A stretch of DNA of 63,814 nucleotides, the filler included, from Rozella allomycis CSF55 (lineage: Eukaryota): NCBI GenBank assembly GCA_000442015.1. It is 6 parts of 6 records of this genome, joined end to end, with 100 filler letters (N's around TTAATTAATTAA, not from the genome) between each part and the next. Parts side by side here need not be neighbours in the genome. Positions count along the whole stretch, not along the records: positions 1 to 19,690 come from KE560881.1; 5 more parts are not named here. The stretch is one strand, 5' to 3'. The position numbers and the translations under genes were made by a program. How positions within the stretch are numbered: position 1 is the first letter of the stretch; each line of letters begins with the position of its first letter. Under the pieces are notes generated by a model. That model searched no databases. It was not told the DNA's origin and saw only the letters and a program-made list of their open reading frames with translations. Shown here in pieces: positions 359 through 44,863 of the stretch.

Positions 359-2363
359 TTATTTATCCTTTTTTGCTCTAGTCCATAACTCATAATATAA
401 GCCTTGCTTTTCAAGCAATTCTTCGTGAGTACCCCTTTCAGCGATTGAGCCATCTTTCATGACAAATATACAATCTACATCTGTTATGGTCGTTAATCTA
501 TGTGCTATAATTATTGTGGTTATCTTGTTTTTAAGTTTCAACGATTCAAGAATAAAGCGTTCTGTTTGTGAATCTAAGGAACTAGTCGGTTCATCTAGAA
601 TTAGTATCTTGGAGCCTTTCAAAATCGCCCTAGCTATCGCAAGTCTTTGTTTTTCACCTCCGGAAAGCATTAAACCACGCTCTCCCACAACTGTATCATA
701 CTTTTTCGGCATCTTTTCTATCGAATCATGAAGGTGAGAAGCCTTGGAAGAATCAATAATGTTATCCATAGAAGCATCAATATCACCATACTTGATATTG
801 TATAAAATACTTTCATTGAAAAGAGTTACATCCTATACAATTCCAGGCAAAATATTACTTGAGGAACAAATCCAATAGACTTCCTTAATGACTTTAGAGT
901 TGAGAATGAGATGTCTTGACCATCAATTAAGATTTCTCCACTTTTTCTCTCATAAAAACGGAGCAATAATTTAGCTATTGTAGATTTTCCACTGCCTGAC
1001 ATTCCTACAAAGGCAACCCTTGATCCGGCTTTTATTTCAAAGTTCAAGTTATTCAAAATGGGCCTATTATTGTCATATGAAAAAGAGACATTTTTGAATT
1101 GGATGGAGCCTCCAGTGCATATTAAATCCTTGTTGCAATCCTAGAGTGATAAATTAATGTGCTAATAACCTTTATTGAAGAGTTTTCGTTTAAAAGAGTA
1201 AACATATTCTCCATGTCTACTAATGATTGTTTAAATTCTCTGTAAACGCTGCCCAGAAAGTTTAGAGGCAGAGACAGTTGAAAAACCAAACCATTTATCA
1301 AAACCAAATCTCCCACTGTCAAATGTCCTAATGATGCGATGTCCGAACATGCCATGTACATTATTCCAGTTAATGCTAAGCTAAATATCGTTTGCTGGCC
1401 AACATTTAACAGGCACAAACTGCTAGTAGTTTTTAACGAAGCTTGTTCATATTTCTCCAAATCTTTGTCGTAGCGTTTTAGCTCATATGCTTCGTTACAA
1501 AATAGCTATATTTATTCATTTTATTGTTGGTTACTTTGACATTTTCTTGGTTCACTAGCGAATCAATTACTTTTGTTGCAGCATCGTTATCTGCTTGATT
1601 CATTTGCTTTCTAAATTTTGTTCTCCATTGGGTGGTAGCAAAGGTGAAACCCGTGTACGTCGCCATCGTGCTTAGAGTAGCCAATGCGTAAGTCAAGCCG
1701 TACTTTGATGCCATTAAACCACAGACCCTATTAATAATTAAATGCTTACATACATTGAGAGCTCAACAGCTGTGGGGACGATGTGAAAAATAGCAGATGT
1801 TAGCAAAAAACTCATCCCTCTGGTACCTTTGTGTTCGGATTCACAATCATTATTACCTCTCTCCAAGTTTCGTGACAGGGCGCCAGTAGGTGTTTTTAGA
1901 TGAAACGAATGATCAAGCGAATGTAAATGGCGGAAAACATTTAATGATATATTTCGTATCGCTCGTTGTGATACTTTTGAGAATACAACATTTCTGAATT
2001 CAGAAAACAAAGATGATCCAATTCTCGCTGATCCGTCTATTGTATAATTTTTTTGTTATTACAAGCTAAAAGAAGCAATGTTGGATATGTTCCAAGTTGA
2101 ATTTTGGAATCGCTGATTGATTTTTCTTCATTCAAGTTATCTACTAGCTTTTTAAACAGTATTGGAACGTGAATGTTTAGGTACTGAAAATAAAATTAAT
2201 GAATAGTTTCTACTTTTCCTAATAATAGAAGAGAAAGGGCACCAACAACTCTGGTCTTTGTCTTGTAATCATTTTTTGGCCAAATGTGTCTTATAAAATA
2301 TTTGAAGTGTGTGCTTTGTTGAAAAGATTTTTTAAATTTGAATTGGTGAAAAAGTTTAGGCAT
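359..2363 (-). CDS. ATM1: Mitochondrial ABC half-transporter ATM1/ABCB7 (Fe-S export), multi-exon
   Basis: Spliced ORF fragments give [36 protein letters not shown], Walker [10 protein letters not shown], signature LSGGEKQR and Walker [11 protein letters not shown]; joined by 26-30 nt GT-AG introns. Start taken as MPKLF ATG. Confidence 0.93.
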
Positions 2364-2441
2364 GAATGTGAACAGCCACAATTTTTGAGTTTTCTACGTT
2401 CCGTTTTGTACCATGAATTCTTTATGATACTTCTCAAAGGC

Positions 2442-5400
2442 TTAAATAGAAGGTGTATTTATTAACGGTCTTTCTGCTTCAAAAGTGTTTAGAGATGGCT
2501 CTTGTTTCCAATTCCGACCTTTGGACTTGTTTTCTTGTTTATAAAGCGCAAAAGCGGCGATCAACAACAAAGAAAACGTGGTGATGAATGAGATTAGTAG
2601 TGATACAGTTGATTGCCAAGTTGATGCTGGGAACCCATACACTCGCACGATGAAAGATTTTCGATAATCGCAGTACGTTTGATTTAAAGAGTCTCTGTTG
2701 TATGTTGATACTTCAATTTCAAACACCAAACTAGGTGGTTGGAAAGGTGTCGGGGTTAAACCATAGCAAGGGCTGCCACTTTCGCAATGCCACCTAAATT
2801 GTTTGTTATGGATATAATTTACATTATGGAATCGTTATTTGTGAGTACACCGCCGTTTGCATGATCAGATGGAATCCATAAAGGCAACACGCCACTAACA
2901 TAAAGTTAACAGCATTGTAGTACCCGTAGTTAAAGTCTATTAATTCCTGTTCATTAAAATAATTAATTTGGCTCTTATTAAAGCCATAACCGATTATTTG
3001 AATGTTGTAACTATTGTTGTACAACGAGCGAAGATTTGAAATATTGTCCTTGATGAAAACTGACGGAGAGAAGGCTTTCTAAATACATTAATGCTTTTAC
3101 TTTCATCGTAAAAAGAACAAGGTAGATTATCAGAGAATGGGCAATTAATGTAATGAGAATCGTCAATCTCAATTTCCATTTCTCTATGCCCAGGACATCC
3201 AACATTGTAGGTGATATCAAAGCCAATGAAAGACTAATAAAATACTTTAATATTGTTACATCAAAATTTGATATCGATTGATCATTTTTACATGCCAGGG
3301 TAGAGTTTTCAATAATGAACCTAACCGTCTTCTGTAGAAAGTAGCTTCCAGGAAAATAGAGGTTATTTCCCAAAGAATTATTCTCAACGACTGAAACAAT
3401 AAACAGAACGCTTGTTAAATCATAGATTTTCTGAATTTTGATTTTTAGTGACGCATCACCTCCCATCAATGAGTACAAAAGATTCATAGATTCTGCAATT
3501 TTGCCAGTTTGTGGTGTTAATTGAATAGTGAATTTATGAATCTCAGTTTGATCAAGAAAAAGATTTGGAGCGAAATTCACATTGGAAACATAAGTGACCC
3601 TGGTCAAATCCGTAGTCAAATTCAAATCTAAAGAAAATGAAGAAAATGGACAAATATTCTAAACGAAATGAATTCATTACGCATATTACTTGAACCAGAT
3701 ACTCTTGCTCTGAGATGGCACTGTCGACGTTTAACAAACCAGTGGAGCTTTGAAGCGTAGTATTAGTATCAAAATATAGATCAAAATAATACACGAGCCC
3801 TCTAAAATCAACATAGGAATCTGCTATTGAGGTATTGGTGACTTCCTTGCTGGAGATAATTCTGGTGTATGGCAAACCGCGCTTGGTGATGTAAGATTTT
3901 CCTGTAGAATCAGTGTAAATTAATGTCATTGATGCATCTGCTAAAATATCAGTAAAAAGTATATTTGGAATAGAATGCATGATAACAAAGCCTAGTCCGT
4001 CATTAACACTATAAAGTAAGCTATTTCCACCCACAATGAGCTCATTGCTAAGTGATTGGGTATAATCCACAGAAGTTATAACTAAAGGCATAGTATTTGG
4101 TCCACTAAACGTCCTGTTGGAAAATATAGTCGTCAAAATTAGCGAATCGTTTGGTACAATTGGAATGGACTGTGGAAACGTAAAGAAATTAACCCATCGC
4201 CCAATCGTCATTGATGAAAGTCTCTGCATTAAAGGAATAAAAATTATATTTACTCTTATGGGAGTAAATTTGTAGAGGCTGTAAACACCATTAATCTTTA
4301 CAATTGCTGTTATTGCTTCACAAGAAAGAACTGATGTGGTAACATCAATCAACGTTGAATTATTACCCACATGCTCTGTGATACTAGCTCCATTTTCAGT
4401 AATCGCTTTATAGAATGTGAATGTTGTGTTCTTCATGTAATAAATGTCTGAAGTGTTTGATATCGCCGTGACAAGCGAACATCCAGATAGTAAAGATGGA
4501 TATCCCTGTGGCGGCAGCTTGAATCTTTTAATACAAACTGGTAAAACAACTTTCCATGTCTGTGTGATGCCCTTTCCCTGGAGAAATTTACCCCAAATAC
4601 GTTACATTGAAAGTACCAACAACGACACCTTTATTTGTAGCCAAGACAGCGGCAGTGTCAAGGAAAAAGCCATCATAAACTGTATTTGTATTATCATTAC
4701 ACACATTTTGAAAGTCTATTCGATCAATTCATTCCAAATTACTCTGTGGGAACGCTGAATTTGTTACATTGTAAAATATTATTGATTTCAAATGATCATA
4801 AGATACTGCTACGATAGATCCCATAGTTGGCTTCAAAAACCAAACTGGAGACACACCTTGCACCTTTTGTTTTTCCATCAAATTAACATTAAATTGATAC
4901 GGATCTATTAAAGTAGAATTATACACATTAGATCCCAATATAAACTATGGATTCACTTCTTAATATTTACCAAATAATCTCCGTTTGGTTGAAGTCTATG
5001 CAACAGCGTTACATACCCAAAATATGCAGTTTTCTTCATCAATGATACAAATTCCAAGCTACTAAAAGGGCTTAAACTTATATCATAAGCGAAAACTCCA
5101 CCTGATAGTGTTTGAAACGGGATGTACCAGTATGTCGAATATGATTTCGCTATAACTAGAGGATTCATCCAAGTATTAAGTACCAGCTGTCCATGTATCC
5201 ACCCAGTCAATCATCGTAGTATTTACTGATGAAACAACATCAAATACAATTTCCGGGTAGCCGCCAATTTGGGAAATGCTGTTGACGCATTCACCACATA
5301 ACGACTTGTCCTTAATTATTTTTTAATTGATTCTATTACGTCTCTCAATATAGATATTCTTATATAATAGTTGCTGTTTGGCAAAATGTATGAAACTGGT

Positions 5401-5536
5401 TTTGGTGGATGTGTTAAAAACGCATTCATTGGATAAGTACTTTTAACATATGATACATCCCTGTTGTTTTAACTTATTTGCTTTACCAAGTATATGCAAG
5501 AGTATAGGAGAGTAAAAGTCCAAAATGGAAAATCAT
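2442..5536 (-). CDS. CatSper auxiliary subunit gamma-like type I membrane protein, multi-exon
   Basis: Signal peptide MIFHFGLLLSYTLA, long beta-rich ectodomain, one C-terminal TM. Hand-spliced C-terminus: NCPFSDNLPCSFYDETFSPSVFIKDNISNLRSLYNNSYNIQIIGYG...EQELIDFN...SIMWHCESGSPCYGLTPTPFQPPSLVFEIEVSTYNRDSLNQTYCDYRKSFIVRVYGFP-TM, matching the recalled CATSPERG pattern WxCxxxSPCY...TYCxYxxxFxxxxxGxP. Confidence 0.75.
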
Positions 5537-5636
5537 ATAATACCCCGGAAATTAGAAATTGAGAATTGTGGCCATAACCATTGAAAACATAGAATGAGAG
5601 TCTCAGACTAATTGTCTAATTTTTATTTTAAGTTTT

Positions 5637-7565
5637 TTATGTTAGAATAGTTTGGCCTTGTTCTATTGTAGGAACATTATCTTTAGAAAAAGCAATTTGA
5701 TATTTAACATGAAATGGTTGCTATTTATCGCCAGTTTAAAGTTATACCTTGTTTGGGTTGAAAATTTGTATTCTCTGAGTAGAAAAAGAATTTGTGTTTA
5801 TACTATCGGAGCTAATAGGTTCCATTTTAAGCTGCATTGGCTAATTCATAACTAGATACAAACTTACATGTGCCACAAGTGTTTGAAAATTAACCTTTTG
5901 TAATACGGAGGTTGTATAATTCGTGAATTTAAAGGAAAAAGCTGTGATATTGCTAGTCTCCGATTCGTTTTTATCCATGCAATAAGTAACGCGCAGTCCA
6001 TGAGAATCGTACAAGATTTCTTTATAATGATGACGTATAAATATACTTACTCTCTTGAACTTGCAATGGTTGATTAAAGACGTTGGGTTGTACTTCTTTG
6101 TGAGCTACTATATAATAAATTACGAGGTTTCGCATTGCTTATTAAATCGTTTGTGAATCCTAGTCCCAACAAGTCTTCAAGATCTAATATATTCAACTAT
6201 TTCAACTCACCAGTAGATTTTTTAAAAGTATTNNNNNNNNNNNNNNNNNNNNNNNNNNNNNNNNNNNNNNNNNNNNNNNNTGACGGTGAAGGTTCGCTAT
6301 CAAAAAGATCTATCAAGGAAGCCTCTGGTTTTGTAGCTGAAGCAGATTTAGACTCTGGAATATTATGTGTACTTATGACCAAATTATATTTTCGTTACTT
6401 GTTTGCAATGTTTGTGATTCCCTTATATTTGTCGTAATTATTCAATGCCGCCTGTATGGCATCATTTGCCTGTAGCAATTTATCTATATCGGATAAGAAA
6501 CATAAATACTTGTTGTTTCTTCTTCATTTTCTTCACTTAACATTTTTTCAATTTTCGGCAACGCTATTTTACATTTGCTCAATGCCTCTTGAATTGATGG
6601 GTCGCTGGTGATGTCAAGCCCAGAAGGCCTACTTTCAATTAATGCATTCAAAACCATAGCACTATTTTGGATAGTCTCTAAATCTTTTTCGAATATTTTC
6701 CTATAGTCCTTTCTTTCTTCCATGACCTTTAACTACACAGAATAAATATTTACATAGCCTGACATCTTTTTCATAATTACATTGGCCTCTTCAAGATCTT
6801 TAGCAGTACCTCTTCTTAAAAGCTCATCAAGTTTCTACATAAAGTTCAGCTAGCTGAATTACTGCTCCCAGTATCGCTCGGTCGCCTTGTTCTATTTCAT
6901 CTTGAGTCAAGAACCCCTTCATTCGCAATAAATCCTCTTTTTACCTCTGATATTGGCATTATTGACTGAATATCATCTTGCTTTAACTCAGGGAACATGT
7001 AGCCGCGATAGCCTAGAATACGATACATTTCATTGATATTAACCAAATCGTCTTTGTATTTTGTTGAGAGGCAGAGGGTTTGTGTCCATAAATGTATCAT
7101 GTACAATATTTTTTGCAATATTTTATTCTTGGTAGTGTCCTATATTAATTATGTAACCTATGTACTGGAGTTTCTGGGAACCTTTTGCAAAGGCCGTTTA
7201 AAAACTCTTTAGATGCGATCTGAAGATGAAATGGATAGCCTAGATTTTTCACACACATTTCCAATAACTCTAGTGCAATTAGCGGTGTTTTGGGATCGAG
7301 CCTATAGTTGACGTTTCTCACAATCGCTAAAGCAGCTTCTCGAGGCCTATTTTACAATTTCCATCAAGATACCCATTTTTCCTTTGTTTGATGATGTCTA
7401 TTATTTCCAAGTTCAAGGCAAGATCCGGCTCGTGTTGATTTCTGCAAGCGTTATCTTAATCAAGTCAAAACAACGTTTGGTACCAATCATTTCATCTAAA
7501 ATTGTGGGATCGGGAGCATTTATAACGTCCTTTACTTCTCTCAGAATTGAAGTGACACTTTTCAT
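5637..7565 (-). CDS. GGA: GGA clathrin adaptor (VHS-GAT-hinge-GAE), multi-exon, internal N-gap
   Basis: VHS: ACRNQHEPDLALNLEII, PREAALAIV, CVKNLGYPFHLQIASKEFLN; GAT: KLDELLRRGTAKDLEEANVIMKKMSGY; hinge LIDLFD; C-terminal appendage ending PTIEQGQTILT*. Confidence 0.88.
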
Positions 7566-14706: not shown

Positions 14707-15572
14707 AAAAGGGCTACCGAAAAATGTCACTTCTAAGTTATTTTTGAAGCTACTCCAATAAATCGTTTTAAATTGAAACTTAAAGTTGAAGTCCCTAAAT
14801 CAGGATACAATCCTTTAATTATTATCTTTGGTTCATCAATCAATAAAGGAAAAGCGGTGCATCTCGAATTCACCGATACCTTTCTTTGTTCGGTTAATCT
14901 ACAGGTTGATGATCAGTATCATTTCAAAATGGCTCTCGGTTAATGGGAAAATTGGCTGACATATAACATTTCGGGTAAATTCGCAATACGATTTCTTTTC
15001 TATTTTGAATCTTCAGGTGATATGAACATGAATTACCCTTAAGGCAGTCAGCTATCTTCTGCAATATCAGTGTCTTAGTCTATTTTAGTCTAAAGATGCG
15101 TTTCTTTCTTGAGATATACGAATTACCATCATCTTTGTCCCTTTAACTATTCGCCTATGTATTCATCGGCCAAATCCATCTTACTCTACGTCTTATTCCA
15201 CGTATTCGACCACAGAATTCGATCCGACCTCAAGTTACTCAATGAAATTGAACCCTCCTTTTCTACGACTACATCTAAATATGCGATTGAAAGGCCTCAA
15301 TTTCGAAAACTATAATCAATGTCTATGTCCGTGCATACCTTCAGCCTAGCGCCCGCCTCCTCGTCAAAAATGTCCATTCGGTAATCACCTTTATCCTATT
15401 CCTCTACAGGGAAGGTTTACCTCTTCAGCTGATTTTAAATGTCCCATCACTTATAATGCAAGAAGAATTTTGAGAGTTGTTTTGCCATCAATCCAGTTTC
15501 ACATTATTGTAATCACCTGTTGATTCCGTTCCACATTTGAGATTTCATGTAACAAGTAGCAACCGAGTCAAA

Positions 15573-16991
15573 ATGGAATTTTCAAATCCGGAGCCGTATT
15601 GGATCCTCAATACTAAAAAAAGCGATGTTGCAACAAATTTCAAAAATAATCGTCTCAGTCGAATGAAGAAAGATGGCAAAGACAACAGTGTCGTCGACGT
15701 TAATGGAATATGTTCTTACATCAAGACATTAGATTACAAGAAAACCATAATAGAAGATGAAGATTTGCATTTTGATTTCATGTCGCAATTAAGTTCATTT
15801 TGCCATAAAGAGCCGAAAAAGGTAGCGAAACACAAAACAAAGCCCGTCAGGTTAAAGCCTATCGATGCTGTTGTGAAAGTGAAGGAGGGGAAAGTAAATG
15901 ATGTTAAACCCCAAAACAATCAAGATCAAGTGGAGGAAGATGGGCAGAATTTTAAGAGTATTCCGTACGACCATTCGCTGGCCAAAGACTTGCTATCAAA
16001 ATTGCCTCATGCACGAACTAAACTTGAACTTAGACAGTTATACCATTTGCTGAAACAATTACCAGCATTTTCGAAGCTTTCGGCATTTGTGTTGGAGCAA
16101 CTATGTAGTGTGATGCATTTTAACTATTCAGATGCTGATCGAGTAGTATTTCTGCAGGGCGATGTAGGTACTTCATGGTATGTGATTCTCAAGGGAAAGG
16201 TCAGTGTCAGTGTGTCTAAAACTGGACAAGCGACGGATGCGGTGGTAGTGAAAATATTGGGAGAGGGCGAAGGATTTGGAGACCTTGCATTGATTAATGA
16301 TAAGCCAAGGGCGGCTACTATAATAACAATCGAGAATTGTGAATTTGCTCGGATAGAAAAGGATGACTATAATAGAATTTTAAGGTTTCTGCATGATAGG
16401 GATATTAAGCAAAGAAGTAAAATGTTGTATAATTTGAAAGAATTTGAAAAATGGACACCGGAAGCAATGAAACAAATTGCTGGATTATTTGATATTAAAA
16501 AGTATAATAAAGGACAGATTATCATACGGGAGAATGAAAAGGCAGATAATTTCTTTATCGTAAAGGGAGGATTGTGCGAAGGATCGAGATTGTATCTCGG
16601 GGAAGATAAACCAAAAAGTGTGATCGTGGAAAGATTTGATGCACGAGACTATTTTGGAGAGAGATGTTTTAATCGATCTATTGATGGATCCATTGTTACT
16701 TATGGGGTTACAATAAGGGCGATAGACGATGTAACGTTGATAGTTTTCTCGGGGTATGATGCTGTGACACGATTTAACAATACATTTATAGCTCGAAAGT
16801 ATTTGAAATGGACGCAAGATGATTTAAAGATATTGTATCAACAACAATGTGAAAACGATAGAATGAGAAGGGAGAAGAGCAAAATATTGAATGGAGTGAT
16901 TAAAGAGAGGCACAAAGATCCTGCTAGATTGTATAAAGGAAATATGACCAATGATCAATTGAAATTTCAAAAATGTGTTTGGCATTACTAA
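15573..16991 (+). CDS. Cyclic-nucleotide-binding domain protein with two CNB domains (CNBD-like)
   Basis: VVFLQGDVGTSWYVILKG, FGDLALINDKPRAATI (intact phosphate-binding cassette); second domain IIRENEKADNFFIVKGG...YFGE. Confidence 0.85.
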   Translation: MEFSNPEPYWILNTKKSDVATNFKNNRLSRMKKDGKDNSVVDVNGICSYIKTLDYKKTIIEDEDLHFDFMSQLSSFCHKEPKKVAKHKTKPVRLKPIDAVVKVKEGKVNDVKPQNNQDQVEEDGQNFKSIPYDHSLAKDLLSKLPHARTKLELRQLYHLLKQLPAFSKLSAFVLEQLCSVMHFNYSDADRVVFLQGDVGTSWYVILKGKVSVSVSKTGQATDAVVVKILGEGEGFGDLALINDKPRAATIITIENCEFARIEKDDYNRILRFLHDRDIKQRSKMLYNLKEFEKWTPEAMKQIAGLFDIKKYNKGQIIIRENEKADNFFIVKGGLCEGSRLYLGEDKPKSVIVERFDARDYFGERCFNRSIDGSIVTYGVTIRAIDDVTLIVFSGYDAVTRFNNTFIARKYLKWTQDDLKILYQQQCENDRMRREKSKILNGVIKERHKDPARLYKGNMTNDQLKFQKCVWHY

Positions 16992-19690: not shown

Positions 19691-19734
19691 NNNNNNNNNN
19701 NNNNNNNNNNNNNNNNNNNNNNNNNNNNNNNNNN

Positions 19735-19746
19735 TTAATTAATTAA
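19735..19746. other. Artificial six-frame stop linker TTAATTAATTAA inside N-gap (also 47950-47961, 49088-49099, 59477-59488, 62688-62699)
   Basis: Identical 12-mer embedded between N runs five times; stops in all six frames. Confidence 0.97.
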
Positions 19747-19792
19747 NNNNNNNNNNNNNNNNNNNNNNNNNNNNNNNNNNNNNNNNNNNNAG

Positions 19793-20687: not shown

Positions 20688-23600
20688 TTAATTAGAATCC
20701 AATTTTGATCTCTTTTGCTTTTTGAATGATGCAAGGGTATTTTCATATTCTTTTAATGAGTGTATAAACGATTGAATAATGACAGTCAAGTGGGACTCTT
20801 CATCCAATTCATCAACATCGATTTCCTTGTAATCTTTGACATCTTCCAATTCCTTGAAATTCATTTCTTTGTAATCTGTGAATATGGAATGAAGAATGTT
20901 TAATAGAATCAATTTTGAATGAATGGGTAATTTAGATTTAACTAAATCCCTAAATTCCTTGTGAGTATTTGAAAAAGTCTTTTTGAATTTTATAAATTTA
21001 GGATCATCAATTGGAATATCGTCAATGATTTGCAATGTATTTTCATAACTATTTTGATAGATTGTTATTCTTGCTTTTTCAAGCCACTTCTTTAAGGAAT
21101 TTACTATTCTATTAGACAGCAACAAAGATTCAACAACATCTATTTTATTTCCACCTTCATTTACATTATCACTATTTATTTCGCTCAATAGATGAGAAAT
21201 TGAAATTGTTGGAATTATAGAATTTTCATTTGTAGATTCTAGAATGTATAGATCAGATTTATATTCAAGTAAATCTAAATCAGTTTCAAGATCAAAGTCA
21301 TCTTTAGGTAGGAGATGATTGTTCAAAGGTAAAGTATTTAAAGCAAAAATGACTTTTAATTGATTTAATCTTGAAATAAAAAAGTCTTCATCATCTAAAG
21401 AATAATTGTATTGATTAAACCACGAGCCTAATTCATCATTATGCATCAATGATAGAAATTTACAAAGTGTACCAAGTTCTCTATTTAATCCATGATCATT
21501 CTCAGATATCCCATTTAAATGTTCAAAGAATAGAACATTATAAAGGGGATAAATGTGATTAAATAAAAGAGATTTTGTTACAATAAGATCAACCAAGCCA
21601 CCCTTGTGTAGAGTTAATTGACAAAGAATCAATCTTTCTAATAAATAGATGACAGACAAAGGATCAAAATCTTCAAAATAATTATAATAAATATCTTGTA
21701 TGATGCGACTATATTGATTTGTGCAGCCAAGAACTCTGTAGAATAAGAGTTCTGGTCGAATCGTTGATTTGAGAATATCTGAAATTTTCTTGAATGAACT
21801 TTCCAAATTTTCATGAATTATTTTAAAGATGAAATAGCCGCTTTGAAAAGAATTATAAACCAACAATTGGTGGATTAAATAGAATGAAAATTTTAATGGA
21901 AAAGATTTCATTCTTAAAACAATTGAACAAGAAGAAAGAAATTCAGATAAAATAAATTTAAATTGTTTTTGATTTGAAGATTGATTTAGAACCAGGGTTG
22001 AATATTTTATCATTAGATTTGAAAAAGTTGAAATTAAATTAAAATGAAAATTATTTTCAATATCTGAAATGTCAGAAAATGTCAGAATGCAATTCTTCAA
22101 TTTTAAAAGAATTTCCATTTGATCTACAAAACATTTTTCTTTAAAGAAATTATCCAACTCTTTTGTTAAATTAGATTTGTCTTGAATTTCATTAGAAGTT
22201 TTTAAACTATCATTAGAAGCATTTACAGTAACAGTGTCACTACATGAGTCCTTTAAAGTATTAACATCACTTTGTTCATTAGACTTTGAATTGCTAATAT
22301 CCACTGGCGCACATTCATTGTTATTATTCAACGTATCTTTAACAGTAATTTCCTTACTCTCTTTATCTTCATTAACACTATTGAATTCAACAATGTCGCT
22401 GCCTTCACTAGTCACATTGGAATCATTAGCATCATTAACTAGAACTGTATCACTACATTCAACAACTGTATCACTACAATCTTTGCTATCAACACCTTCA
22501 ACAACTGTATCACTACATTCTTTAACGTCATTAGCAACATTAACAACAGTAACTTCTTCAACTTTAGCAACATTAACTTGTTTATTATCATCTTTATCCA
22601 CTTTAGCAACATTAACTTGTTTATTATCATCTTTAACAACTATATCATTAACAACTTTGGCTATTAACTCTCCATTAATCAATTCAACATTGAAATTTAT
22701 TAAAGCAAAGTATGAAATAATTTCACCGACAAATTTAGATTTAAAATTATTTGAAATTTTATTAATGCTTGTCAGAAAAGAAGATTTCTCTAAATTTTTA
22801 AAACTTTTGTTCAAATTTGAATGCCAACCATAAAGTTTAACATAATCTCCATTTTTATTAACATTCAAGAATCCAAAATTTCTGTAAAATAAAATATTCT
22901 TGTGTTCATTAAATTGATCTGTCAACATTTTATTAATAAAATCAAAATATTCAAAATTAAACAATTTAAATGATTCACAAACATTAATAAAATCTTTAAA
23001 TTTTGATTCTTTAATTAAATAGTAAATTCTTGTAAAAATAATCAATTTGAAATAAAGTGGATCTATTTTGGAAATTTCCAGATCTAACATTTTCAATAAT
23101 TCTAAAACATTCCTTTCAGTAAACAATCTACCAAAAACTTTATAATCTTTGTTTTTCAATATTTCATCAATTATCAAATTTTCATTATTTAAATCAAATT
23201 TAAATTGATAAATAGAATATGAACTAATTAAAGTCTTGAACATTAAATCTGGATAATCCTTTTTTAATTCAGAGCTTTTAGAAACAATCATTGCAGCTCT
23301 TTCAATGTTATCAGCTTTATCCACTAAAAGATCAACACACAATCGTTTATTTCCTTTTTGTTCCAAATGATCAATGTAATTGTTTATATAATCTTGGTTT
23401 TCATCCAACAATGAATAAATAAAATCTTTTTCTTTTATTTCATCAATCACTCTACCAGCTGACAAACCAGTAGTGATTTTAGCACTCCCTTCAACCTTTT
23501 CTTTAACATCTCCTTTCCCTTGAAGCTTTTCCCTTTCCACGCTTTCTCTTTGTAACCTTTCCTTGTCTCTCTTTTCCTTTTCTATTAAATAATTGGCAAT

Positions 23601-26600
23601 CTCTTTCAAAAATTGTAATTTCAATTCTTTATCAATAACTTTAAACTCATTTTGATGATTAACAATAATTTCAAAAGCTTTTTCATAACACTTAGCATTT
23701 CTAAAACAAAGAAGAGAATTGTCGTAATCTTGAATTTTCAGAAACAAATTTCCAGCCTTAACAAAATCATCAGCATTGAAGAAACATTCAGCTGCCAATT
23801 TAAATTCATCAATTTTTTCAAATTCAATAGCAGCCTTCTTCAACAATGATTGTTTTTGATTTTTAGATAAGCTTTTGGATTCCAATTCATAAATTTTAGC
23901 CTGACAATAAGAGATTTTATAGACATTATCAGTATTTTTAAAGCAATTCAAAGCTTGAACATACATTTCTTTATTAAAGAATTCATTGCCTTTTTTATTC
24001 CATTCACTGTCAGAACTTTTAACCGCCAAAGTGTAATTTTTATTTTCATATTCAGCCAATTTAAAATTTATTAATAGATTGAAAAAATACAATGAATTTT
24101 CACTTGTATCAAAAAACACTAGAAGATTTTTAGCCCTGGTTATTCCAACATACAGAAATTTTAAATCATTAAAAAAAGTTGAATTATTTGAATGCTCAAA
24201 GTTAGAATTCTTTCCTTTAAAATAAGTATTCATTTTTTCAGCAAAATTTTCATTTAAATCTTCTTGAACAATTTTATCTAAAATTGTTAAATATCGCCAT
24301 TTATTCTCCAATAAAGAACTTTTAAAGAAATCGAAAATTACAACATCAGAAAATTCTAAACCTTTGGATTCAGTAATTGTTAAAACTTGAGCCTTTTTAT
24401 TATTTTCTTCAAGAATTCTTTCCAATTCCTTCTTTTTGAATTCATCTTTAACAAGAATGACTTGATCAGCCCCAAGTGAATTAGAATCTCCATACAAATA
24501 GATCAAGAAATTCTCAATGTTTCTGTGATTTAATATTGTTGGTTTCATTGTAGAATTAATAGCTCCAACTTCATCCTCCAATTTATCAATCTCAGATGGA
24601 AAAAAGAAATGAATTAATCTAGTTACGAAATTTCCTACTTTTAAAATGTTGGCTTGAGATCTAAAATTCTTCTTCAATTGAAACAAGTGCGGCAAAATAG
24701 ACGAATTGTTGTAATCATTCTTATTATCAGCAATAAAATAATAAAACAAATCTTTAATTATTTCAAATTTAAATATATTTCCTTCAGTGATACATTGAAC
24801 TTGATCACCAGCCAATGTAAACAAGGTTTGATTATCTCTTCTCATCAATAATTTAATTAACGCCATTTGAATCGGCAATAAATCCTGGATTTCATCAATG
24901 TAAATATAATCAAACACGGCTAAATTGTCATTTTGATGCAATTGATTAAACAAATGAAAACAAATATCTGAAATATCAAAATCTCCATTTTCATTTTTAT
25001 TTTTTTCATACTTTAAATAAAGTTGATAAATTTGTTCATAATCTACCTTGTTCAATTTACTCCTCCTAGTCTCGCCCTGTTTAATATATTTTGACATTTC
25101 CAAACATCTTTTATTCTCAATTAAATTATTGAATGATCCTTTAATATAAAACATTATTTCATTAAAAATATTTAAAGCTTCTGATTTTGTCTTACCTTTG
25201 AAATATTTTCTATGAAATTTCTCAAATCCAACAAAATTGTTTTCAAATGATTTCAAGTTGTTTCTTTTTAATTTATTCACGCTACTTGCATTTCCTTTAC
25301 CAACGCTCATTCTCATTTTATACTTTTCATATTCCAATTCGTTCATCAACATTCTATCTTCACAAAATGAATCTAAATAGATCAATAACCGCTTAAAAGA
25401 TAAGAATTTCGCATCAGATTCAATATTCATTTTCTTGATTTTATTAATCTTTGATATTTGCATTTCATATTCCTCTTTTACATTTCTGCAAAGGATTTCA
25501 CTTGCAGTTAAAAATAATTGCTTTCCATTCAAGTGTGACTTGAAATTATTAAAACTGACACAAAGCAATCTCCTTGATATAACACTAGTTTTGCCCGTTC
25601 CACTTCTACCAACGATAATCAAATTCTTTTTGTATTTAACAATCTTATTTTCTGTATCTTCCAACAAGTAAGGCAACTCTTTATAATCTTCAAAGTTATT
25701 CTCCAATAGAAATTCCAACGCTTCTGAATTTAAGGAATAGATTTTGCAGCTCAGATTTGATTCTTTTGAATTAGTTAAATTGGCTTGTGCTTGATCCACA
25801 CAGTCAAACCTTTTTATCCCTGTAGTCTCTGCCAAATCAAATCTGTTTGGATAAATTATTCTATTCTCATCCAAAACTAATTCACAAAAACATAAATTCA
25901 AATATTTTATGCTAAATTTATTAATGTTCTTTTTAAAAATTTCAAATCCTTTATATATTTCAGTTCCACTGATTAAATCCAACACTTCCAGCACTTGAAT
26001 TCTTTTATTCAAATCAACACCAATCGTCCAAACTATCTTTTTATTATCTCCAATGTCCTTCGCATAAAATATATTCCCTGCTTTATATTTTTCTTTTATC
26101 ATTTCCACACTATTAATATATGGTCTGTTATTGATCCCGCCAAAATTTCCTCGTGTCAATCCAATAATGAAATTAATCGCATTTCTCTTGATCAAGACTT
26201 GTTCTTTACTAATCTTCTTTAACGCATTGTCAACACTTCTCAAACTCCAAATTCCCTTCACATTTACCACTTTATTATTAATCAATTTCATTATTTCAAA
26301 TCTGTTTTCACTCTTCTCAATCTCTTGTATCATTAACCCATTCATCTTCTTGTTCCATAATTCTCTCAAATTAGCGGGAAAGGATTCATATATTGTATTC
26401 ATAGCAAAAAACGAACTCGTTGACATTACCATTCTCATCATATCCGTCCACAAATTAGACGATGAAAATGTATTCGCATCTCCAAACACCCATAATGCTC
26501 TTCTAGCTCTCGTTATAGCTACATTCATTCTCTGCGCATCCTCAACAAACCCAATCTCTTGCTGTGGATTAGATCTTGTCAATGACAATATTATTATATC

Positions 26601-28669
26601 CCTCTCATGTCCCTGATATGCATCAACAGTCCCGACATCAATTTCCTTTTCAACGCCAATCATTCTCATTGCTTCTTTAAAATCACCCATCTTTTCTTTA
26701 AATATTTCCACTTGATAACTGTATGGGCAGATTATGCTAATGGTGTCCTTTTCTTTTGGATAACAACTCACAAAATAAGACAAAAATGCTAAAATATGGT
26801 TTGCTTCAATTAAATTCCCCTTCGATCCGCTCAATGAACTATTTTCCATAGAATTGAAATGATTTATAAACATCAAAGGCTTGAAATACTTGGAGTCATA
26901 CCACTCGCATTTATAATTCAACACCTTCTTCGAATTCTTCAATTCGTTATCATAGAATGCCTTAGATGCAAATTTCACAATGTCTTTGTGCATTCTAAAT
27001 TGCTCTTTCAACATCACTACAGATTCGAATCCACTCCTTAACAATCTTTCAAAAAAGCTTGTCGCTCTTCCACTATCACGAATATCTTGAGATTTGCACA
27101 ATCCTGGTAACTGCTTTTCATCTCCTACAAGTGTAATCGACTTGATTCCATTGCGCAATAAGCTTAGTATCTCCCATTCCAAGCATTGACTGGCTTCATC
27201 CACAATCACCCGTCCACATTTTTCATTTATTAACCTTGAAGATAATGATGAACTCAAAGTACAAACATATATGGATGCTATTTAACGCTAAATAATTGAG
27301 GTACCATATTTTATGTAGTCTTTGGATATGTCAATATAGTCCTTCTTTTTACTGATCCTTGTTAATACATGTGATATATTCCACAAGTCATACAACGATA
27401 TTTCACCGTTTTCAAACTTTGTAATCGATTTTTTTATGCCATCAAATAGAGTTTTATGCTTAGTTATCACATTTTCATATCTCAAAATCTGCATTAGATT
27501 GTCCTCCATTGCTGCATACACATCATTTAAATTTTCATAATGTACAATACTGTCACGTTGAAGTAAATTCGTTATCAAGTCTGTCGCTATCGTTATTGTT
27601 CGAAAATATTCATTTATTCTCTCTTCCAACAAATACGGTCTTGTATCAGCATTCATTAATTCGATCAAAGTATCATATCTTCCAACTAACACTATCTTGA
27701 ACGGATCAATATTAAGCTCCCGGATGATTTTATTCAATAAACACACAACTGCGACATTTGTTTTGGCGGTAACCAAAATTGTTTCACCTGGAAAAAGATT
27801 TACTAGCCCTTCAATAATACCAACAATAGTTTGCGATTTTCCTGTTCCAGGAGGTCCCTTTACAAGCGAAATAGTGTTGCTATAATTAGCAACTACGGAC
27901 ATTTTATTGCCTCACGCTGCTCTTCATTCGCATTGTCGTATATTGCAGATTTAGATAATTCATAATTAATATGGTTCCGAGGTGCAACAAAAGGACTCTT
28001 GTAATGATCAACTCCATTCAAAACAATATTGCGTATGGAAGAAGGTATCAAATTTCTCTCGAACATCAAGGATCGTAAGAATCGAAAACCCGGACAAAAA
28101 CCAGCTATTGGAAGCAAATATCCTTCCTTAAATTGGCGATAATTATCACTTTTGTACATTATTTCCAATTTAAACTGCACAATCACTTGGGCTTGGGCAT
28201 CATCATTTGGAACTTGACGCTGGCCATATCCATAATTCTCTTGATCAATGATAAGAATGCCTATTATATGATTAGAAGTATAGAAATCTTCAAATCTCGC
28301 CACCCTTTCTTCTGATAGACAAACTAAATCCATATGCATGATCTCAGGCAACTCTTCGGAAAAAACAAAGCTTATCCTGGACTCATCCTCTCGCAACGAA
28401 AATGGAAAAGATTGACGATAAGTACTAGACTTGGACAAGTTTTCAACCACTTCAGTTCTCATTTCTTCTTTCACCAGAACAGACATGTAATCACACATCC
28501 CTTTAATAGATCCATACTCATCATTCAAGATTTTCGCTCGATAGTCTTTTTTGCAAAATGCGGGTATTCCATCACGCAAAAAGTTAAAGATTTTTTCCAC
28601 AGTCATATTTTCTACCCCTGCTTTTCTCGACGCGAAAATATATAAAAGATCAGTTGAGAAATCTCGCAA
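20688..28669 (-). CDS. Giant dual SF1 helicase: Upf1/Sen1-like helicase + RelE-like linker + UvrD/TRANK1-like helicase + TPR + low-complexity C-terminus
   Basis: First helicase GPPGTGKS, VDEASQ, VGDEKQL, QFRMH, TVDAYQGHERD, RMNVAITRAR; second GRSGTGKTS, YIDEIQD, AGDQVQCI, LKKNFRS, TITESKGLEF, LYVGITRAK; then TPR-like WNKKGNEFF...AAECF. One 27-nt intron near 27268-27294; frameshift near 27900; start uncertain. Confidence 0.85.
22420..22650 (-). repeat. Coding minisatellite-like repeats inside the helicase gene
   Basis: KDDNKQVNVAKV occurs twice and CSDTV three times here (once more near 22235). Confidence 0.8.
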
Positions 28670-32325: not shown

Positions 32326-32859
32326 ATGTTCTACCGGAGTGATTTGATTCTCACAACAAGATTTTTAACTATGTCAATTCATTTTGCGTTGGCTACATCA
32401 CTATATTTTAGCAAGGTAGAACAAATTATCACATATTTCAGGGTATTAATATAAAAACGTCCTTACCAATTGTGTATTCTACTGATCAATATTCAGCTGC
32501 AAATGATGTGTAAATGGCTTAATAATATATTATACAGAGTGCTTTCTTATATCATTTTTGCGTGGGTCTCATTTTTGATATTGTTTCTTTGTTTCTTCAC
32601 AGGAATTTCCATGTTTCGATATAACTTGAGTGTACTACGTAAAAAATGCGATAAAAAGTTAAAAGACTCATTCTTCCACATTATGGGGATCATATTTCTG
32701 ACTTTGCACAATACAAAACCATGGCCTTATGAGGTGGGTTGGTATATTGTAGGTCCGACAAGGTAATGGTTTGAAAGAAATTAGAATAGCGGTATACCAG
32801 TCCTATTGGAAATATTTTATGCCTATACAACTGTTATTTGTAGAAAAGGATATATATAA
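32326..32859 (+). CDS. TMEM107: Ciliary transition-zone protein TMEM107
   Basis: Spliced: LILTTRFLTMSIHFALATSLYFSK...NIKTSLPIVYSTDQY...CFFTGISMF...FHIMGIIFL...WPYEVGWYI...IPVLLEIF, four TM segments. Confidence 0.85.
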
Positions 32860-34910: not shown

Positions 34911-37900
34911 TTAAAATCTGCGCGAATTGTTGTAAATAGCCAACGCATCATTAATCTGCAAACAAAACCACTATTTAAAAAGAATAAAAATAAATACATT
35001 AGCAGTGCTATGATCAGAGCAAGAAATAAATCTCTGCGCAAATTCAGGATGCCTAATTAACAAAACAATGCCATCAAACGTAGTTTTAACAGCAATAAAT
35101 ACTAGAGGAGAAATTAAAAATAGTTTATACTGTCAAAAGGAATTTCCCATATTAATTTCAAGTTTCTTTCGGCCAAATAGATGATTCTTTGATTTGAAAC
35201 AATAGCAATTGAATTATCTTCAGGAACATTAATATGAGCAACGTAAAAATCATTAATGTATTTTGAATGGGCGCATTCTTTCAGGAATGACTGACCAATA
35301 GCGTCTCTTTCTGAAAAGGGTCTTAGAATTCTATCGTAAGCGATGAATCTTGGGAGTCTGATTCTTGACACTTCAAATTCATCGAATGCAATAGTTGTAT
35401 TTTTGATTCCCTCTGAAACATTACTAGCGAGATCAAAGACACCGACTATTGGTTTGGAAACTGCGCCCACTAGACCCTTGCCGATTCCTTTGAAGAAACC
35501 GCCAACGCCATCTTTGATTGCGCCCTGAGTTGGTTTTTCAATTAATCCAGTGACACCGCTTTTAATTGAAGAAGCGAATGATTTAGCACCCAGAGCAACA
35601 CCATTGAAGACGTGTTTTGGTTTATTTCTTGATTTTGATTGTCTTCTTTTTTCTTGAAATTTAGAATCCAGAGTGACTACAGATAAACCTATTAGGGTTA
35701 GTGATATGAAAATACCTTTTCCAACAGAGCCAGTAAACTTTGAGAATGCATCAGAGAGGCCATAAACAGTTTTATTTAAAAAGCTAGCACCACCTACTTA
35801 ATGGTTAAAAGTATTGAATACCTAGAATAATAATTTAAAAGCATTGAATACCTATAATCATCATTTAAAAGTAAGTATTACCTAGAATCATATTTTATAA
35901 AAGTTGTAACCTTTAGCTAGACCAATACCAAAATCTTGAGGATTGTCAGAAACCAAACCTAGATAAGGTTCGTAAAAAGCGTNGATTATCAGAAACCAAA
36001 CCAAGATAAGGTTCGTAAAAAGCGTCTTTAACAGCTGAAGAAAAAGTGTTGAATAAACCAACAGGATTACCTAATGAGAATAAAAGAATAATTTGAATAC
36101 CGAGAATGTCAGCAGAGCCTAAAAGTTTGTGAAACTGTAGAGTTAATTTAAGAGAATAGTATTCGAGGATTAGTTTGTAGAGTAAATCTTTTTGAATGAT
36201 TGGATGTTCCATTATTAGAGCATTTAAAGTAATTGGAGCATTGTGAACATTCCCTTGTGAATAAGTTTAACTATATTTACCAATGGCCATTGTTAGAGAA
36301 TCTAGAATGAGAGAGAAAGGATTTCCTTTTTTAATCTTGTTTCCAGATCTAGAGAAAGAAAAGTTAATTTTGAGTGGATGTAATTGGAATACTTCAAAGT
36401 AGATTAATTGATTTGAAATATTTGAATTATTTTGAGTTGGAATTTTCAAATCTTTATTGAAGGGATTTTCAGTAGAAATTTTAGATTGAAAAGAAATAAA
36501 ATCAAATAATTCATAAAGAAATCTACAGATTAAAAAAGAAAAAAAGATNAAAGAAATCTACAGATCAAAAAAGAAAAAAAGATTTACTTTTCATCTAATT
36601 CAATTGACATTTCTTGGAATAGAATACTGAAATATTTGAAATAATCAACACCGTGATTTTTATCTTTTGATTTAAAGATTGAACAAGAAAAGAAATTGAG
36701 TTCATCGTTTAAGTTTAAGCTTGTGGGATAAAAGATGATTGGTTGATCAAATCCATACAATTGATTATCAAATTGCAACCATTTTATTAATAATTTTAAA
36801 TTTAAATCAAAATCTGAATCTGAATATTCTAGAAATAAATCTTTTGCTGAAATTAAACCAATTTCAATTGAATTATTTATTAAAGAAACCAACAAATTAA
36901 ATCTCAAAGTTAAAAGATGATTCACAACATAAGAAGAAAAGTTGGAAGAATTTGATTGAGAATGAGAAAGTGAAAGAGATTTAGATTTTGATTTGGAAAG
37001 TGAAAATGGTTGAGCCAACGACAATGATTTACTAGACACATTCTGATTAAGAGTAGGTGTATTAGTTGTATAAGTTGTATTCTGATTAGATACACTCTCT
37101 CTTCTCTCCCCCTTAACTTCCCCTCTTCTCTCTTTGATGGTGACTAGAGTGGTCTNCACCCCTTTCTTTGATGGTGACTAGAGTGGTCTCATTTTGAGCT
37201 ATAATGTCGGCATAAATTAAACAATCATTAAAATTGAAAGATTCAGTTAAACCAATTTCAGAAATATTTAATTCAAAATTCTTGTTGTTTCTTTTTAAAA
37301 TTAATTTCTTTTCAATTGTTGAATTTTCCCAAATGTAATTTTCTTGTTGATTTTCATTCAAAGTAAAAATATTTGAACAATTCTTTTGAAAATATTTAAA
37401 TTGAAATTTTGTTTGATTTATTAATTTAAATGGCCAATTAATAGAATGATTTATATTAACAAATAGAATGTTTGATTCACTCACTATATCTATTCTTATC
37501 AATTCATTATTCAAACTTAGAAATGTTTTTCCCAGATTTCTAAAATTAAACAACAATTGAGAGTGAGATGATTGAGAGAGAGAAGTAGTTGGTTGAGATG
37601 AAGTAGTAGTTGTTTGAGATGAAGTAGATGATGAAGTAGTTGAACTATCAGTGTTCATCCCTTCACCCTTACTTCTACCCCCTTCACCCTTCCCTTCATC
37701 ACCTTTTAGTTCAATGATTGAATTGTTCACTTTCAGGTCAGAATGAAATGGAATTTGCTGATTCATTTTCAATTCATAAATGTTTTCATTTAAAGAACCA
37801 AATTGTTTAAATTTAATAGTCTTGTTTAATTGATTCACAATAATTATTTTTGGTGTCAATGTAACAATTGTAGATTTAAAATACTAGAATAATCTATTAA

Positions 37901-40900
37901 ACTATTTTACTTTGGTTATAGAGATTCCAATTGAATATTCAATTTGTTTATTTCTGTTTGGAATTAAAACATGATTTTCAATTGAATCAAAGTTTATTAA
38001 TCTGCTCCAATCAGAGTCCATCACTTTTAAATAAACCTTATTAAAACTAGCCAACGTTATCTTTGAATTATTAAAGTTTGAATTATTAAAGTTTGAAGTG
38101 TATTGATAACTTCTTTCACCACTCTCATCATCTACTTCAGAGTCATACCAGTTGATGTTCTCTTCCTTGTATTTAATTAATAAACCAGTTTTATTCAAAA
38201 TAACAAAAGGAGATGAAATGGAAACTCTTTTTGAAATCCCAAATTGATTTAAATTTTCATATTCAATTTTCAACTTTAAATTCTTGTTTCTAAAAGATAA
38301 ATTATAATCAACTTCATTTCCATTTATTATAGCTTGACCTTGTTTAAATTCAGTTTCTAGAATATCAACCAAGATTGAAATTGTCTTTTTAATGTCAATT
38401 TGATTCATTGCATATTCTTCAACACTTTTAATAATCCCTCCAAATGCAAATGATTTTTCTTCTTCATAAATTTTATAATAAATATCAAATGGTAAACAAT
38501 TCTGAATTATTAAACAATTATAAATAGTAATAGTTAAACATGGGTATCTTTATAAATCATCAAATCTAATTTTACTCGAAATTTTCTACTTTGATTTCTA
38601 ATTCAAATTTCAAATTTAATTTTTCATCTTTTAAATTTCTACATTCAATCAACATTGCACAATCTTTATTAAATTCTCTCCAATTGATTATTTCATTGCA
38701 ATATTCAATCCCTTCAATGTTTGGTCTCACTTTAATCACATTGTCATACAACAACATTGGATCAAACCCTCCACCATCTTCTGTTGCTATTTTAGGGATA
38801 AAAGTAGAAATTACCAATTAATATTTTAGATTTTAAAAGTAAAGAAGCATCAAGTAACGTAGCTTCAAATGGAAGATTAGTTTTATTTCTTATTTGAATT
38901 GTTGATTCAAAGCAAACATTCTATTCAACTAGAAAATTTAAACTTTTACTTTGATATTCCCATCCACAAACACATTCACACACACCAAATGTTTAGGGTT
39001 AGGGTTTAATAGGTTTGAAGTGTTTAAAGGGTTTAAAGGGGTTGAACTAGTGAATGAACTAGATGGACTTGTGGGCTCTCTTAATTCATTCCCCCTACTT
39101 ATTGGCTCTCTCAATTCATTCATCTTTTCCTTTTCAACGTCTCGCTTCAAGGGATAGTATTTGGTTCCTTCCTTGTCAATTGGAATTTCATTAATCTTTT
39201 TAAAATTATCCAATTTGATTGAAATCAACAATAATTGAATATTTCCCATTCTAGTTGAATCATTTAAATCTTTAAAATTAAATGGAATCTTTTCTCCATT
39301 TTTAATTAATCTCTTTTCATCTTTATTAAATAATTCAATTAAACAACCAGTCTTATTTATTATAACACATGGATACCCTTGTTTTCTCTTGTTTGGTTTC
39401 TTTTCTATTTGTTCAAAAATGTTTTTTATATTCTTCATGAATTGTTTATTAAGATTAACCATTAAATCATTCAATCCATTCAACTCATAATTCATTGTTC
39501 CCTTGTTGTCTTTATTCACCTTGATTTGAGTCTTAAATGATTCAACCAATGGTTCCCAATGGGAATTGCTAGAATTGAAATAGTTCACATTCATTTCAAT
39601 CTCACTCTTCAACTTTAAATTCAAATTCCAATCTTTCACTTCCATTTGATGTTTATCAATCTTTATATCCAATATTGGCAACTGACATTCACTAACATCA
39701 TCAATCAACAGAAACTTTATTCCCTGACTATTCCATGTCAACAATTCACTCATCACAATCAATTCACTTGAATCCATCCAAGTAACATTAACGTTCAAAG
39801 TATCACTATTAAGGTTTAAAGTAGTATTATTCAAAGTAGTAGTATCACTACTTGCACAAATTACTTCACCTTCACTACTTCTACCCCCATCAACTTCAAC
39901 TCCCCCTTCAATAAAGTTTGTTATAATTTTGTAAACCAATAAAATATCATGATAAGAAATTCTAAATACAATTGGCTTTGTATTCAACCAATAATTAACA
40001 CATTGATTCATTTGATCATTTTCTATCGTTAAAGATGCATCAAATTCATCAACAAATTTAAATAATTCTTTTTCATTCATATTCAACAAAAATAATCCAA
40101 AATTCTCAAAACTCAAACTTGAATTTCCTTTGGTTGAATACACAAACTGTTTCATCTTGATCAATATCGCTTCTGTCTCTTTATTCTTTAAATCTTCCAA
40201 AATAAACAATTCAAAGTTCACTACATTAACCAGAAAATAGAAAACAGAATTTGTATTGTTTTTTGACTGTGATTTAGAATTTGATTTAACATTTGATTTA
40301 AAAGTATTCCTTTGGGCTCCATTAGAACCTTTCAAATTCATTTCTACTTTATTATCTTTTTGGGGATAATTGTCAAGAAAAAATGATTTAATTGAATAAA
40401 TGTTATTTAAACTTGTAATCATTTTGGGACTATCAAGAGTTACTTTAACCATCCCATTCCCATTCTCTACCATTGTATACTGAATAAACAATTGTCCATC
40501 TGAATATTCACTCTCTGGTATTATTTGTGTATAATATTGTTTAATACTTCTAGTATCATCCAACGAAAATGAATCAACCCAAACATCAACCTGCATTTCT
40601 CCCCTGTCTCTCTTGAAATTCAAAACACTCTTGTTAATCTTAAACAAACAAAAATTCAAACATTTTCCATCTCTCAAATTGAACAATTCCAATTCTATCC
40701 CTTGCAATTCCACAACAATTTCATTAATCACTTTATCAGGTGTATTAAGATTTTGAAGAGCAAGAGTATTAAGAGTATTAGTTAAAGCACTCCCCATCAC
40801 TTGATCAGTCACTCCAGCAGTCACTTTACTATTCAATTCATCACTCCATTCACCCTCTACTCTCCCTTCTCCTTTCTCTCCAACTTCATCACTAAATATC

Positions 40901-44592: not shown

Positions 44593-44863
44593 GTATTAAC
44601 TAGTGGCTTGAGCCTTGACCTAACGTAAACTTTCAAGATTAAAGATGTCACCAATATGGAAAACACATTTTCATTACTTTAAACTATTCATTAATGCTTT
44701 TATTAGAATAATATATAATATATAAACATATATCATAATATGTTAATAATCAACATCAATGGAAACATATTTTATTTACGACAGCCTGTTGAAATATGTT
44801 ATATTCGCACTCATTGTCTTATGCTTAATGCTTAATGCTTCATTCTGTAAATACGTAGCGGCT

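Follow-up and report, generated by a model that had tools for sequence, protein, structure and literature searches.

The genome of Rozella allomycis CSF55 carries, on the minus strand at positions 2442 to 5536 of the 63,814-nucleotide stretch analyzed here (the window, whose positions are used throughout), a gene that we judge, with a probability of roughly 0.78, to be the ortholog of CATSPERG, which together with β, δ, and ε makes up the canopy of large single-pass subunits over the CatSper1-4 pore of the flagellar Ca2+ channel. CatSper was long regarded as a sperm channel, and among flagellated fungal lineages with a genome none branches more deeply than Rozella, a strongly reduced parasite. 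The encoded protein has γ architecture: a signal-like N terminus, an all-beta ectodomain, a cysteine-rich stem, one predicted transmembrane (TM) helix, and a short tail. A sequence-only reading of this DNA had proposed a CatSper γ-like subunit in a zoosporic fungus-like host. R. allomycis is indeed a zoosporic fungus, and the γ-like identity is upheld by Pfam, by sequence and profile searches of the PDB, by a fold search, and by the relatives of the gene. The CATSPERG family is already known in zoosporic fungi, and what we describe is a corrected gene model and a further member of that family, not a new kind of system.

Family assignment and gene model

The last exon belongs to the CATSPERG C-terminal domain family. 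On its own it matches Pfam CATSPERG_C (PF22846) with an E-value (E) of 7.6e-12 and 45.9 bits against a cutoff of 27.6, covering profile positions 104-178 of 202, and because this exon alone exceeds the curated Pfam cutoff, the match is more than chance. A phmmer search with the same exon found mouse CATSPERG2 (7EEB_F, 9UBW_F) at E ~7e-12, aligned to chain residues 1004-1083, which hold the stem and TM helix. The C-terminal motifs that had been listed for CATSPERG are all present in the translation and in order: C..PC..F.P..I.D, YNIQIIGYG, ELIDFN, WHCESGSPCY, TYCDYRKSFIVRVYGFP, and the TM helix.

The part of the protein upstream of the last exon was searched as a public 753-amino-acid (aa) product, which does not include that exon, and 23 relatives were recovered at E <= 1e-3 from 1.84 billion representative proteins. 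CATSPERG_C scored above its cutoff in 18 of these (the remaining five are short fragments or had no match), the CATSPERG_Ig-like domain reached its 27-bit cutoff at the aligned place in 12, and sub-threshold CATSPERG beta-propeller matches were seen in 3; none of the 23 matched a CATSPERB or CATSPERD family in Pfam at E <= 0.01. An alignment (A1) was made of P0025, a public 753-aa product, and 23 relatives, leaving out P0012, P0019, and P0023 as short and P0001 as an allele. Searched against the PDB, its profile matched CATSPERG2 over residues 98-1083 at E 6e-86 but β (7EEB chain E) at just E 1.3e-4 over ~90 residues; apart from γ and β, no canopy chain was among the matches listed at E <= 1. 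The sole PDB match of public product P0001 by phmmer, a herpesvirus gH at E 0.13, was taken as chance.

Structure prediction agrees with these searches. An AlphaFold2 model of P0025, computed with alignment A1, had a mean predicted local distance difference test score (pLDDT) of 70.4 and a predicted template modeling score (pTM) of 0.64, with poor stretches at residues 1-6, 63-73, 144-164, 236-256, and 712-753. Against the PDB, Foldseek placed 7EEB_F (CATSPERG2) at the top with E 4.5e-26 and a query template modeling score (TMq) of 0.59. Ranks 2-5 were other canopy chains, 7EEB_H, 7EEB_E, 9UBW_E, and 7EEB_G, with E 1.6e-19 to 1.2e-13 for the H, E, and G chains of 7EEB (H and G we take to be epsilon and delta), and the nearest unrelated fold was a sialidase at 3e-9. 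By profile, by fold rank, and by the Pfam matches of its relatives, the Rozella protein is closer to γ than to β, δ, or ε, and its ectodomain is predicted by the model to be of γ type, with an N-terminal domain, a beta-propeller, and an Ig-like domain. Two of the checks that the sequence-only reading had proposed, canopy-subunit profiles and comparison with the CatSpermasome structure, favor CATSPERG.

Recovering this product depends on very short introns. Stop-to-stop frames on the minus strand of 2442-5536 are interrupted every 50-900 nt, with a change of frame each time, and a single frame is regained from 5536 down to the TAA at 2444-2442 when short GT..AG segments are removed. Eleven introns are obligatory, measuring 26, 29, 28, 26, 27, 28, 31, 26, 26, 29, and 29 nt and all of the form GTA..AG. 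A twelfth, at 4253-4224 (30 nt), is in frame and optional, so that the product is 919 aa with it removed and 929 aa with it kept. All 12 fall within 26-31 nt, begin with GTA, and total 335 nt. A fewest-introns splice path was dropped since it needed implausible introns of 37-55 nt, and a path allowing 20-36 nt introns was dropped since frame inspection showed exons 8-10 to be mis-threaded. The features of the gene are as follows.

2442..5536, minus strand: CATSPERG-like coding span, ATG 5536-5534, TAA 2444-2442, 13 exons, ~919 aa (frame tracking and splice model)
5486-5461, 5339-5311, 5183-5156, 4970-4945, 4742-4716, and 4605-4578, minus strand: obligatory introns, 5' part (GTA start, frame)
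3689-3659, 3259-3234, 3100-3075, 2923-2895, and 2822-2794, minus strand: obligatory introns, 3' part (GTA start, frame)
5487..5536, minus strand: exon 1, start codon and 17-aa hydrophobic signal-like peptide (translation; without counterpart in the public models)
3690..5460, minus strand: exons 2-7, predicted N-terminal domain and beta-propeller region of the ectodomain (AlphaFold model, fold match to 7EEB_F, family profile)
3260..3658, minus strand: exon 8 (133 aa), putative Ig-like domain region (weak Pfam match and relatives)
2823..3233, minus strand: exons 9-11, first half of the CATSPERG C-terminal (stem) domain, with Cys/Pro motifs and YNIQIIGYG (relatives' profile)
2562..2792, minus strand: last exon, residues 1-77, second half of CATSPERG_C (WHCESGSPCY ... 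TYCDY ... YGFP; Pfam, phmmer)
2541..2609, minus strand: single TM helix (only hydropathy peak above 1.9; aligns with the mouse CATSPERG2 TM helix)
After the TM helix to the stop at 2442, minus strand: predicted cytoplasmic tail of ~35 aa

The position of the gene and the hand-spliced introns of 26-31 nt reported in the sequence-only reading are therefore confirmed, on the minus strand and with one restored frame. Its description of a signal-peptide, single-TM protein of about 900 aa also stands for the length and the single TM peak, whereas the N-terminal 17 aa are, on their hydrophobicity, best called signal-like. The only 19-residue window above 1.9 on the Kyte-Doolittle scale lies at aa 864-887 and is followed by a tail of ~35 residues. 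The hydrophobic N terminus, the C-terminal TM segment aligned with the mouse TM helix, and the short tail would suit a putative type I topology, and the spliced product has 14 cysteines and 20 N-x-S/T sites, the latter in the ectodomain.

Individual parts of the model were compared with a second profile built from 14 full-length relatives, with Rozella excluded. The spliced model, aligned across residues 14-893 (880 residues), scored 404 bits and the public model 267; excising the in-frame intron at 4253-4224 raised the score by 2.6 bits, and the stretch that the public model skips but the spliced model keeps matches conserved columns. Exon 1 is supported by the residues at its junction with exon 2 (..AYTW|DV..), which match conserved columns of the relatives' profile. 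The region of exons 2-7, which contains the introns 5339-5311, 5183-5156, 4970-4945, 4742-4716, and 4605-4578 and the optional 4253-4224, is all-beta in the AlphaFold model, where residues 260-500 have pLDDT mostly of 70-94. Exon 8 matched CATSPERG_Ig-like weakly and under cutoff (E 0.072, 13.5 bits), and for the propeller no direct Pfam match was seen. Exons 9-11, bounded and divided by the introns 3259-3234, 3100-3075, 2923-2895, and 2822-2794, match the relatives' conserved block ..C..PC..F.P.F..D...Y.L..VGGG..; taken one by one, each is too short, and none had a Pfam match.

Relatives, allelic variation, and public annotation

The relatives include Blastocladiomycota (three Allomyces species, Blastocladiella, Sorochytrium, and Paraphysoderma), chytrids (Zopfochytrium, Polyrhizophydium, Entophlyctis, Rhizoclosmatium, Physocladia, Chytridium, and Dinochytrium), Gonapodya, the holozoans Pigoraptor and Chromosphaera, Rhodelphis, and the foraminiferan Nonionella. 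Judged by sequence, members of the family thus occur in zoosporic fungi, in unicellular holozoans, and in a handful of other flagellates. A quick tree of 18 rows, from which fragments and several unnamed matches were left out, placed Rozella on the fungal side of the split from the non-fungal rows, with a Shimodaira-Hasegawa-like approximate likelihood ratio test (SH-aLRT) value of 95, and outside the Blastocladiomycota group that contains its host genus (support 86). Because of this last placement, recent transfer from the host is unlikely. No fungal branch is longer than that of Rozella (2.82; median 1.04), and the tree is most simply explained by a vertically inherited, fast-evolving gene.

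The closest comparisons are with Allomyces macrogynus KNE71993 and KNE61002 and with the proteins of other zoosporic fungi, which are direct relatives (P0005, E 4.8e-14) of 910-1018 aa with CATSPERG_C and Ig-like matches; the Allomyces proteins are named 'CATSPERG C-terminal domain-containing protein' in UniRef. The Rozella copy differs from these relatives in having just 17-24% identity to them and in that the diagnostic domain is missing from its public model. Mouse CATSPERG2 (7EEB_F, 9UBW_F) belongs to the same family by Pfam, profile, and fold, and in both a large all-beta ectodomain is joined to a single TM helix and a short tail, but the two share 12% identity over aligned columns (Foldseek), the mouse chain is 1145 aa against ~919 aa, and the mouse is an animal with sperm whereas Rozella is a unicellular fungal parasite. 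CATSPERB, D, and E resemble the Rozella protein in overall fold and topology, with strong fold matches (7EEB_H, E, and G), but their profile similarity to the Rozella family is negligible and there are no Pfam matches to their families.

Public DNA runs show that the gene is polymorphic. Of 73 allelic differences, 40 were itemized, and 39 of these 40 lie inside the gene: introns hold 7, and the coding changes comprise 23 that are synonymous and 9 that are not; all three indels among the 40 fall in predicted introns. This pattern is typical of constrained coding sequence and supports the intron calls, and the gene appears, from these variants, to be intact and under purifying selection. A second haplotype is present over 2300-5700 in the public DNA runs, which are labeled as this organism, where one contig has 25 differences in 3401 bases and short alternative contigs have up to 16 differences in 171 bases. 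The two public protein models of the gene are its two alleles.

These public models, EPZ35082.1 (O9G_004829) and the allelic RKP19808.1, are 753 aa each; at the locus, a 296-aa exon has 96% identity to an R. allomycis CSF55 hypothetical protein. They begin at an internal Met (5429), take a longer intron in place of 4605-4578, mis-splice exon 10, and then read on to a stop at 2824. These departures in start and splicing cost the models exon 1, with its signal-like peptide, and the last three exons, so that neither the TM helix nor the second half of the C-terminal domain is encoded. Neither public product examined (P0001 and P0025) had a Pfam match, P0025 not even at E <= 10, and a word-indexed search with the last exon turned up no protein of 204-2000 aa that contains it, the Rozella models included.

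A likely consequence can be seen in a 2026 atlas of flagellar proteins from 184 fungal proteomes (PMC13358043), which we cite for its main text and for the orthogroup columns counted from the membership table of its supplement. In that table the CATSPERG and CATSPERT orthogroups have no Rozella entry; the CATSPERG column lists reference proteins followed by KAG4107671, KAI9144836, KNE61002, KNE71993, KXS18988, and ORX47838, and KAI9144836, KNE61002, KNE71993, and KXS18988 are also among the relatives of the Rozella gene. EPZ35082 and RKP19808 occur nowhere in the supplement file. The γ gap for Rozella in the atlas is most simply read as an artefact of the truncated model. The expectation that automated annotation would miss the gene is largely borne out: a gene model does exist, but it is cut at both ends, has no family match, and is absent from the 2026 survey. 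The case shows how tiny-intron genomes can lose diagnostic terminal exons in automated annotation, and its practical worth lies in re-annotation and in a candidate for studies of zoospore steering.

Proposed role and rival explanations

In the mouse complex, the γ TM helix pairs with the CATSPER1 voltage sensor. Excerpts of PMC13484710 describe four single-pass mouse subunits as an extracellular canopy over the CatSper1-4 tetramer, whose formation precedes and stabilizes the pore; at the roof β is in contact with δ and γ, its TM helix fixes it to CATSPER4, and γ supplies inter-dimer contacts. Because the stem and TM helix are the best conserved parts of the Rozella protein, we infer for it the role that γ plays in the mouse. 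By this analogy, Rozella γ would be made in the secretory pathway and glycosylated, its ectodomain would pair with the β and δ/ε homologues to form a canopy, and its TM helix would be anchored beside the voltage sensor of a pore subunit. A Ca2+ channel of the zoospore's flagellar membrane would then need it in order to assemble and remain stable, and that channel may steer swimming. Rozella zoospores would thus use a CatSper-type complex, as the sequence-only reading had supposed.

Candidate partners come from the atlas table, where Rozella is entered under CATSPER1 (EPZ35127), CATSPER2 (EPZ34913), CATSPER3 (EPZ36251), CATSPERB (EPZ35838), CATSPERD/E (EPZ32421), and EFCB9 (EFCAB9; EPZ34868) (PMC13358043). 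With the corrected model, the Rozella canopy set of β, γ, and δ/ε looks complete. As Rozella is both deepest-branching and strongly reduced, the parts it has retained help to show which components form the conserved core. According to three reports that cite Cai et al. 2014, CatSper with its β and γ subunits goes back to an ancestor shared by animals, fungi, and apusozoans and is present in Allomyces (PMC5362262, PMC7935092, bioRxiv 10.1101/230292), and the presence of CatSper in zoosporic fungi implies an origin before the animal/fungal split (PMC5362262, PMC7935092). In the literature that we found on CatSper with Rozella, Allomyces, chytrids, or sirenin, no Rozella γ subunit was reported.

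Several observations count against assigning the gene to CATSPERG or giving it this role. The N-terminal two thirds of the protein have no direct Pfam or PDB sequence match in a single-sequence search, a point on which it differs from mouse CATSPERG2; the fold model, computed from the mis-spliced public product, is disordered over its final 42 residues. The support for the 12 introns comes from frame, homology, and polymorphism; no RNA run was listed as containing the locus, and one that was examined yielded only two pieces of 18-21 nt (from one contig, with unlike flanks), which we judged spurious. The long Rozella branch makes some functional drift possible. Flies and worms are not known to have CatSper. 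The CATSPER1-4 orthogroups of the atlas table include fly and worm accessions (PMC13358043), and with such members they may be broad voltage-gated-channel groups. The Rozella pore-subunit assignments come from this published table, and its CATSPER4 orthogroup has no Rozella entry.

Some of these points would suit a protein with a γ-fold ectodomain that has become decoupled from the CatSper pore and been retained on the zoospore surface, for adhesion, or as a receptor that recognizes the host, while the channel was partly lost. Along with the length of the Rozella branch, the table has no Rozella entry under CATSPER4 or CATSPERT, and according to the main text of the atlas not every flagellated fungus has kept the CatSper components (PMC13358043). 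We nevertheless consider such decoupling rather unlikely, since the stem and TM helix are best conserved with mouse γ, since in the mouse the γ TM helix serves as an anchor to the pore, as does that of β, which anchors to CATSPER4 (PMC13484710), and since Rozella is entered under CATSPER1-3, B, D/E, and EFCAB9. The gene might instead be a decaying or unexpressed relic given an over-fitted splice model, as GT..AG pairs are abundant in AT-rich DNA and a frame can be forced from them, the full frame escaped the public pipelines, and the RNA run gave only the spurious pieces. This is highly improbable in light of the narrow size range and GTA start of 12 of 12 introns, the collinearity of the product with its relatives over 880 residues (splice-junction segments included), and the 23 synonymous versus 9 non-synonymous differences with indels confined to introns among the 40 of 73 differences listed. 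Least probable of all is that the gene encodes another canopy paralog, β, δ, or ε. The plan of propeller, Ig-like domain, stem, and TM helix is common to all four canopy subunits, and 7EEB_H, E, and G are themselves strong fold matches, but the Pfam matches of the gene and its relatives are to CATSPERG families only, the A1 profile separates γ from β (E 6e-86 against 1.3e-4), in the fold search the E-value of γ is lower than the next by 6 to 7 orders of magnitude, and the B and D/E orthogroups are already filled by other Rozella proteins (PMC13358043).

A wider scenario is that Rozella, a much reduced endoparasite from the base of the fungi, kept a near-complete CatSper (at least three pore paralogs, β, γ, δ/ε, and EFCAB9) with which its zoospores home on their host Allomyces, and that the channel, with its fast-evolving γ ectodomain, could be tuned to host cues. 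Allomyces gametes signal with sirenin, which is reported to activate human CatSper (bioRxiv 10.1101/230292). If the scenario were true, the channel of the parasite could eavesdrop on host-derived cues, but taken as a whole we regard it as very unlikely.

Other features of the window

Among the open reading frames (ORFs) of the window, Pfam revealed no CatSper-related gene other than the CATSPERG-like gene. A gene with cyclic-nucleotide-binding domains and CCDC77 had been offered as CatSper context on the same scaffold. The former exists as a 492-aa open frame at 15513-16988 on the plus strand, in which Pfam recognizes two cyclic-nucleotide-binding domains (E 1.7e-27). In the PDB its product is matched best by the Epac2/RAPGEF4 regulatory region at E 1e-47, far better than by protein kinase A regulatory subunits at E ~1e-20, and the gene may encode a cAMP sensor of the Epac type in this zoosporic fungus. 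Because a shared scaffold carries no weight in a eukaryote, its location says nothing about CatSper. CCDC77 was not found by Pfam among the ORFs of the window.

An ABC transporter (ABC_membrane and ABC_tran) at 362-2055 on the minus strand is split across five overlapping frames, which suggests a tiny-intron structure like that of the CATSPERG gene. The window also holds an enoyl-CoA hydratase, a leucine-rich repeat protein, Mog1, a HECT ligase, a CCCH zinc-finger protein, and a thiamine pyrophosphate enzyme. Five identical gaps at 19691-19790, 47906-48005, 49044-49143, 59433-59532, and 62644-62743, each of two runs of 44 N around 12 bases, look artefactual, from assembly or masking, and not biological. 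A superfamily 1 helicase frame of 2197 aa with a 207-aa upstream piece occupies 20691-27911 on the minus strand, with AAA_11/AAA_12 and UvrD-type domains; this is the part of the window with the lowest GC content (25-29%), and it has strong negative GC skew. TMEM107, a protein of the ciliary transition zone that would be plausible in a flagellated fungus, was matched below threshold at 32455-32763 on the plus strand (E 1.8e-4, 22.3 bits; cutoff 26). A VPS13 lipid-transfer gene at 35117-44595 on the minus strand is spread over several frames, with N-terminal, middle, VAB, and C-terminal domains, and remnants of a copia-like retrotransposon with retroviral-type SH3-like and Pol beta-barrel domains lie at 56313-58087 on the minus strand.

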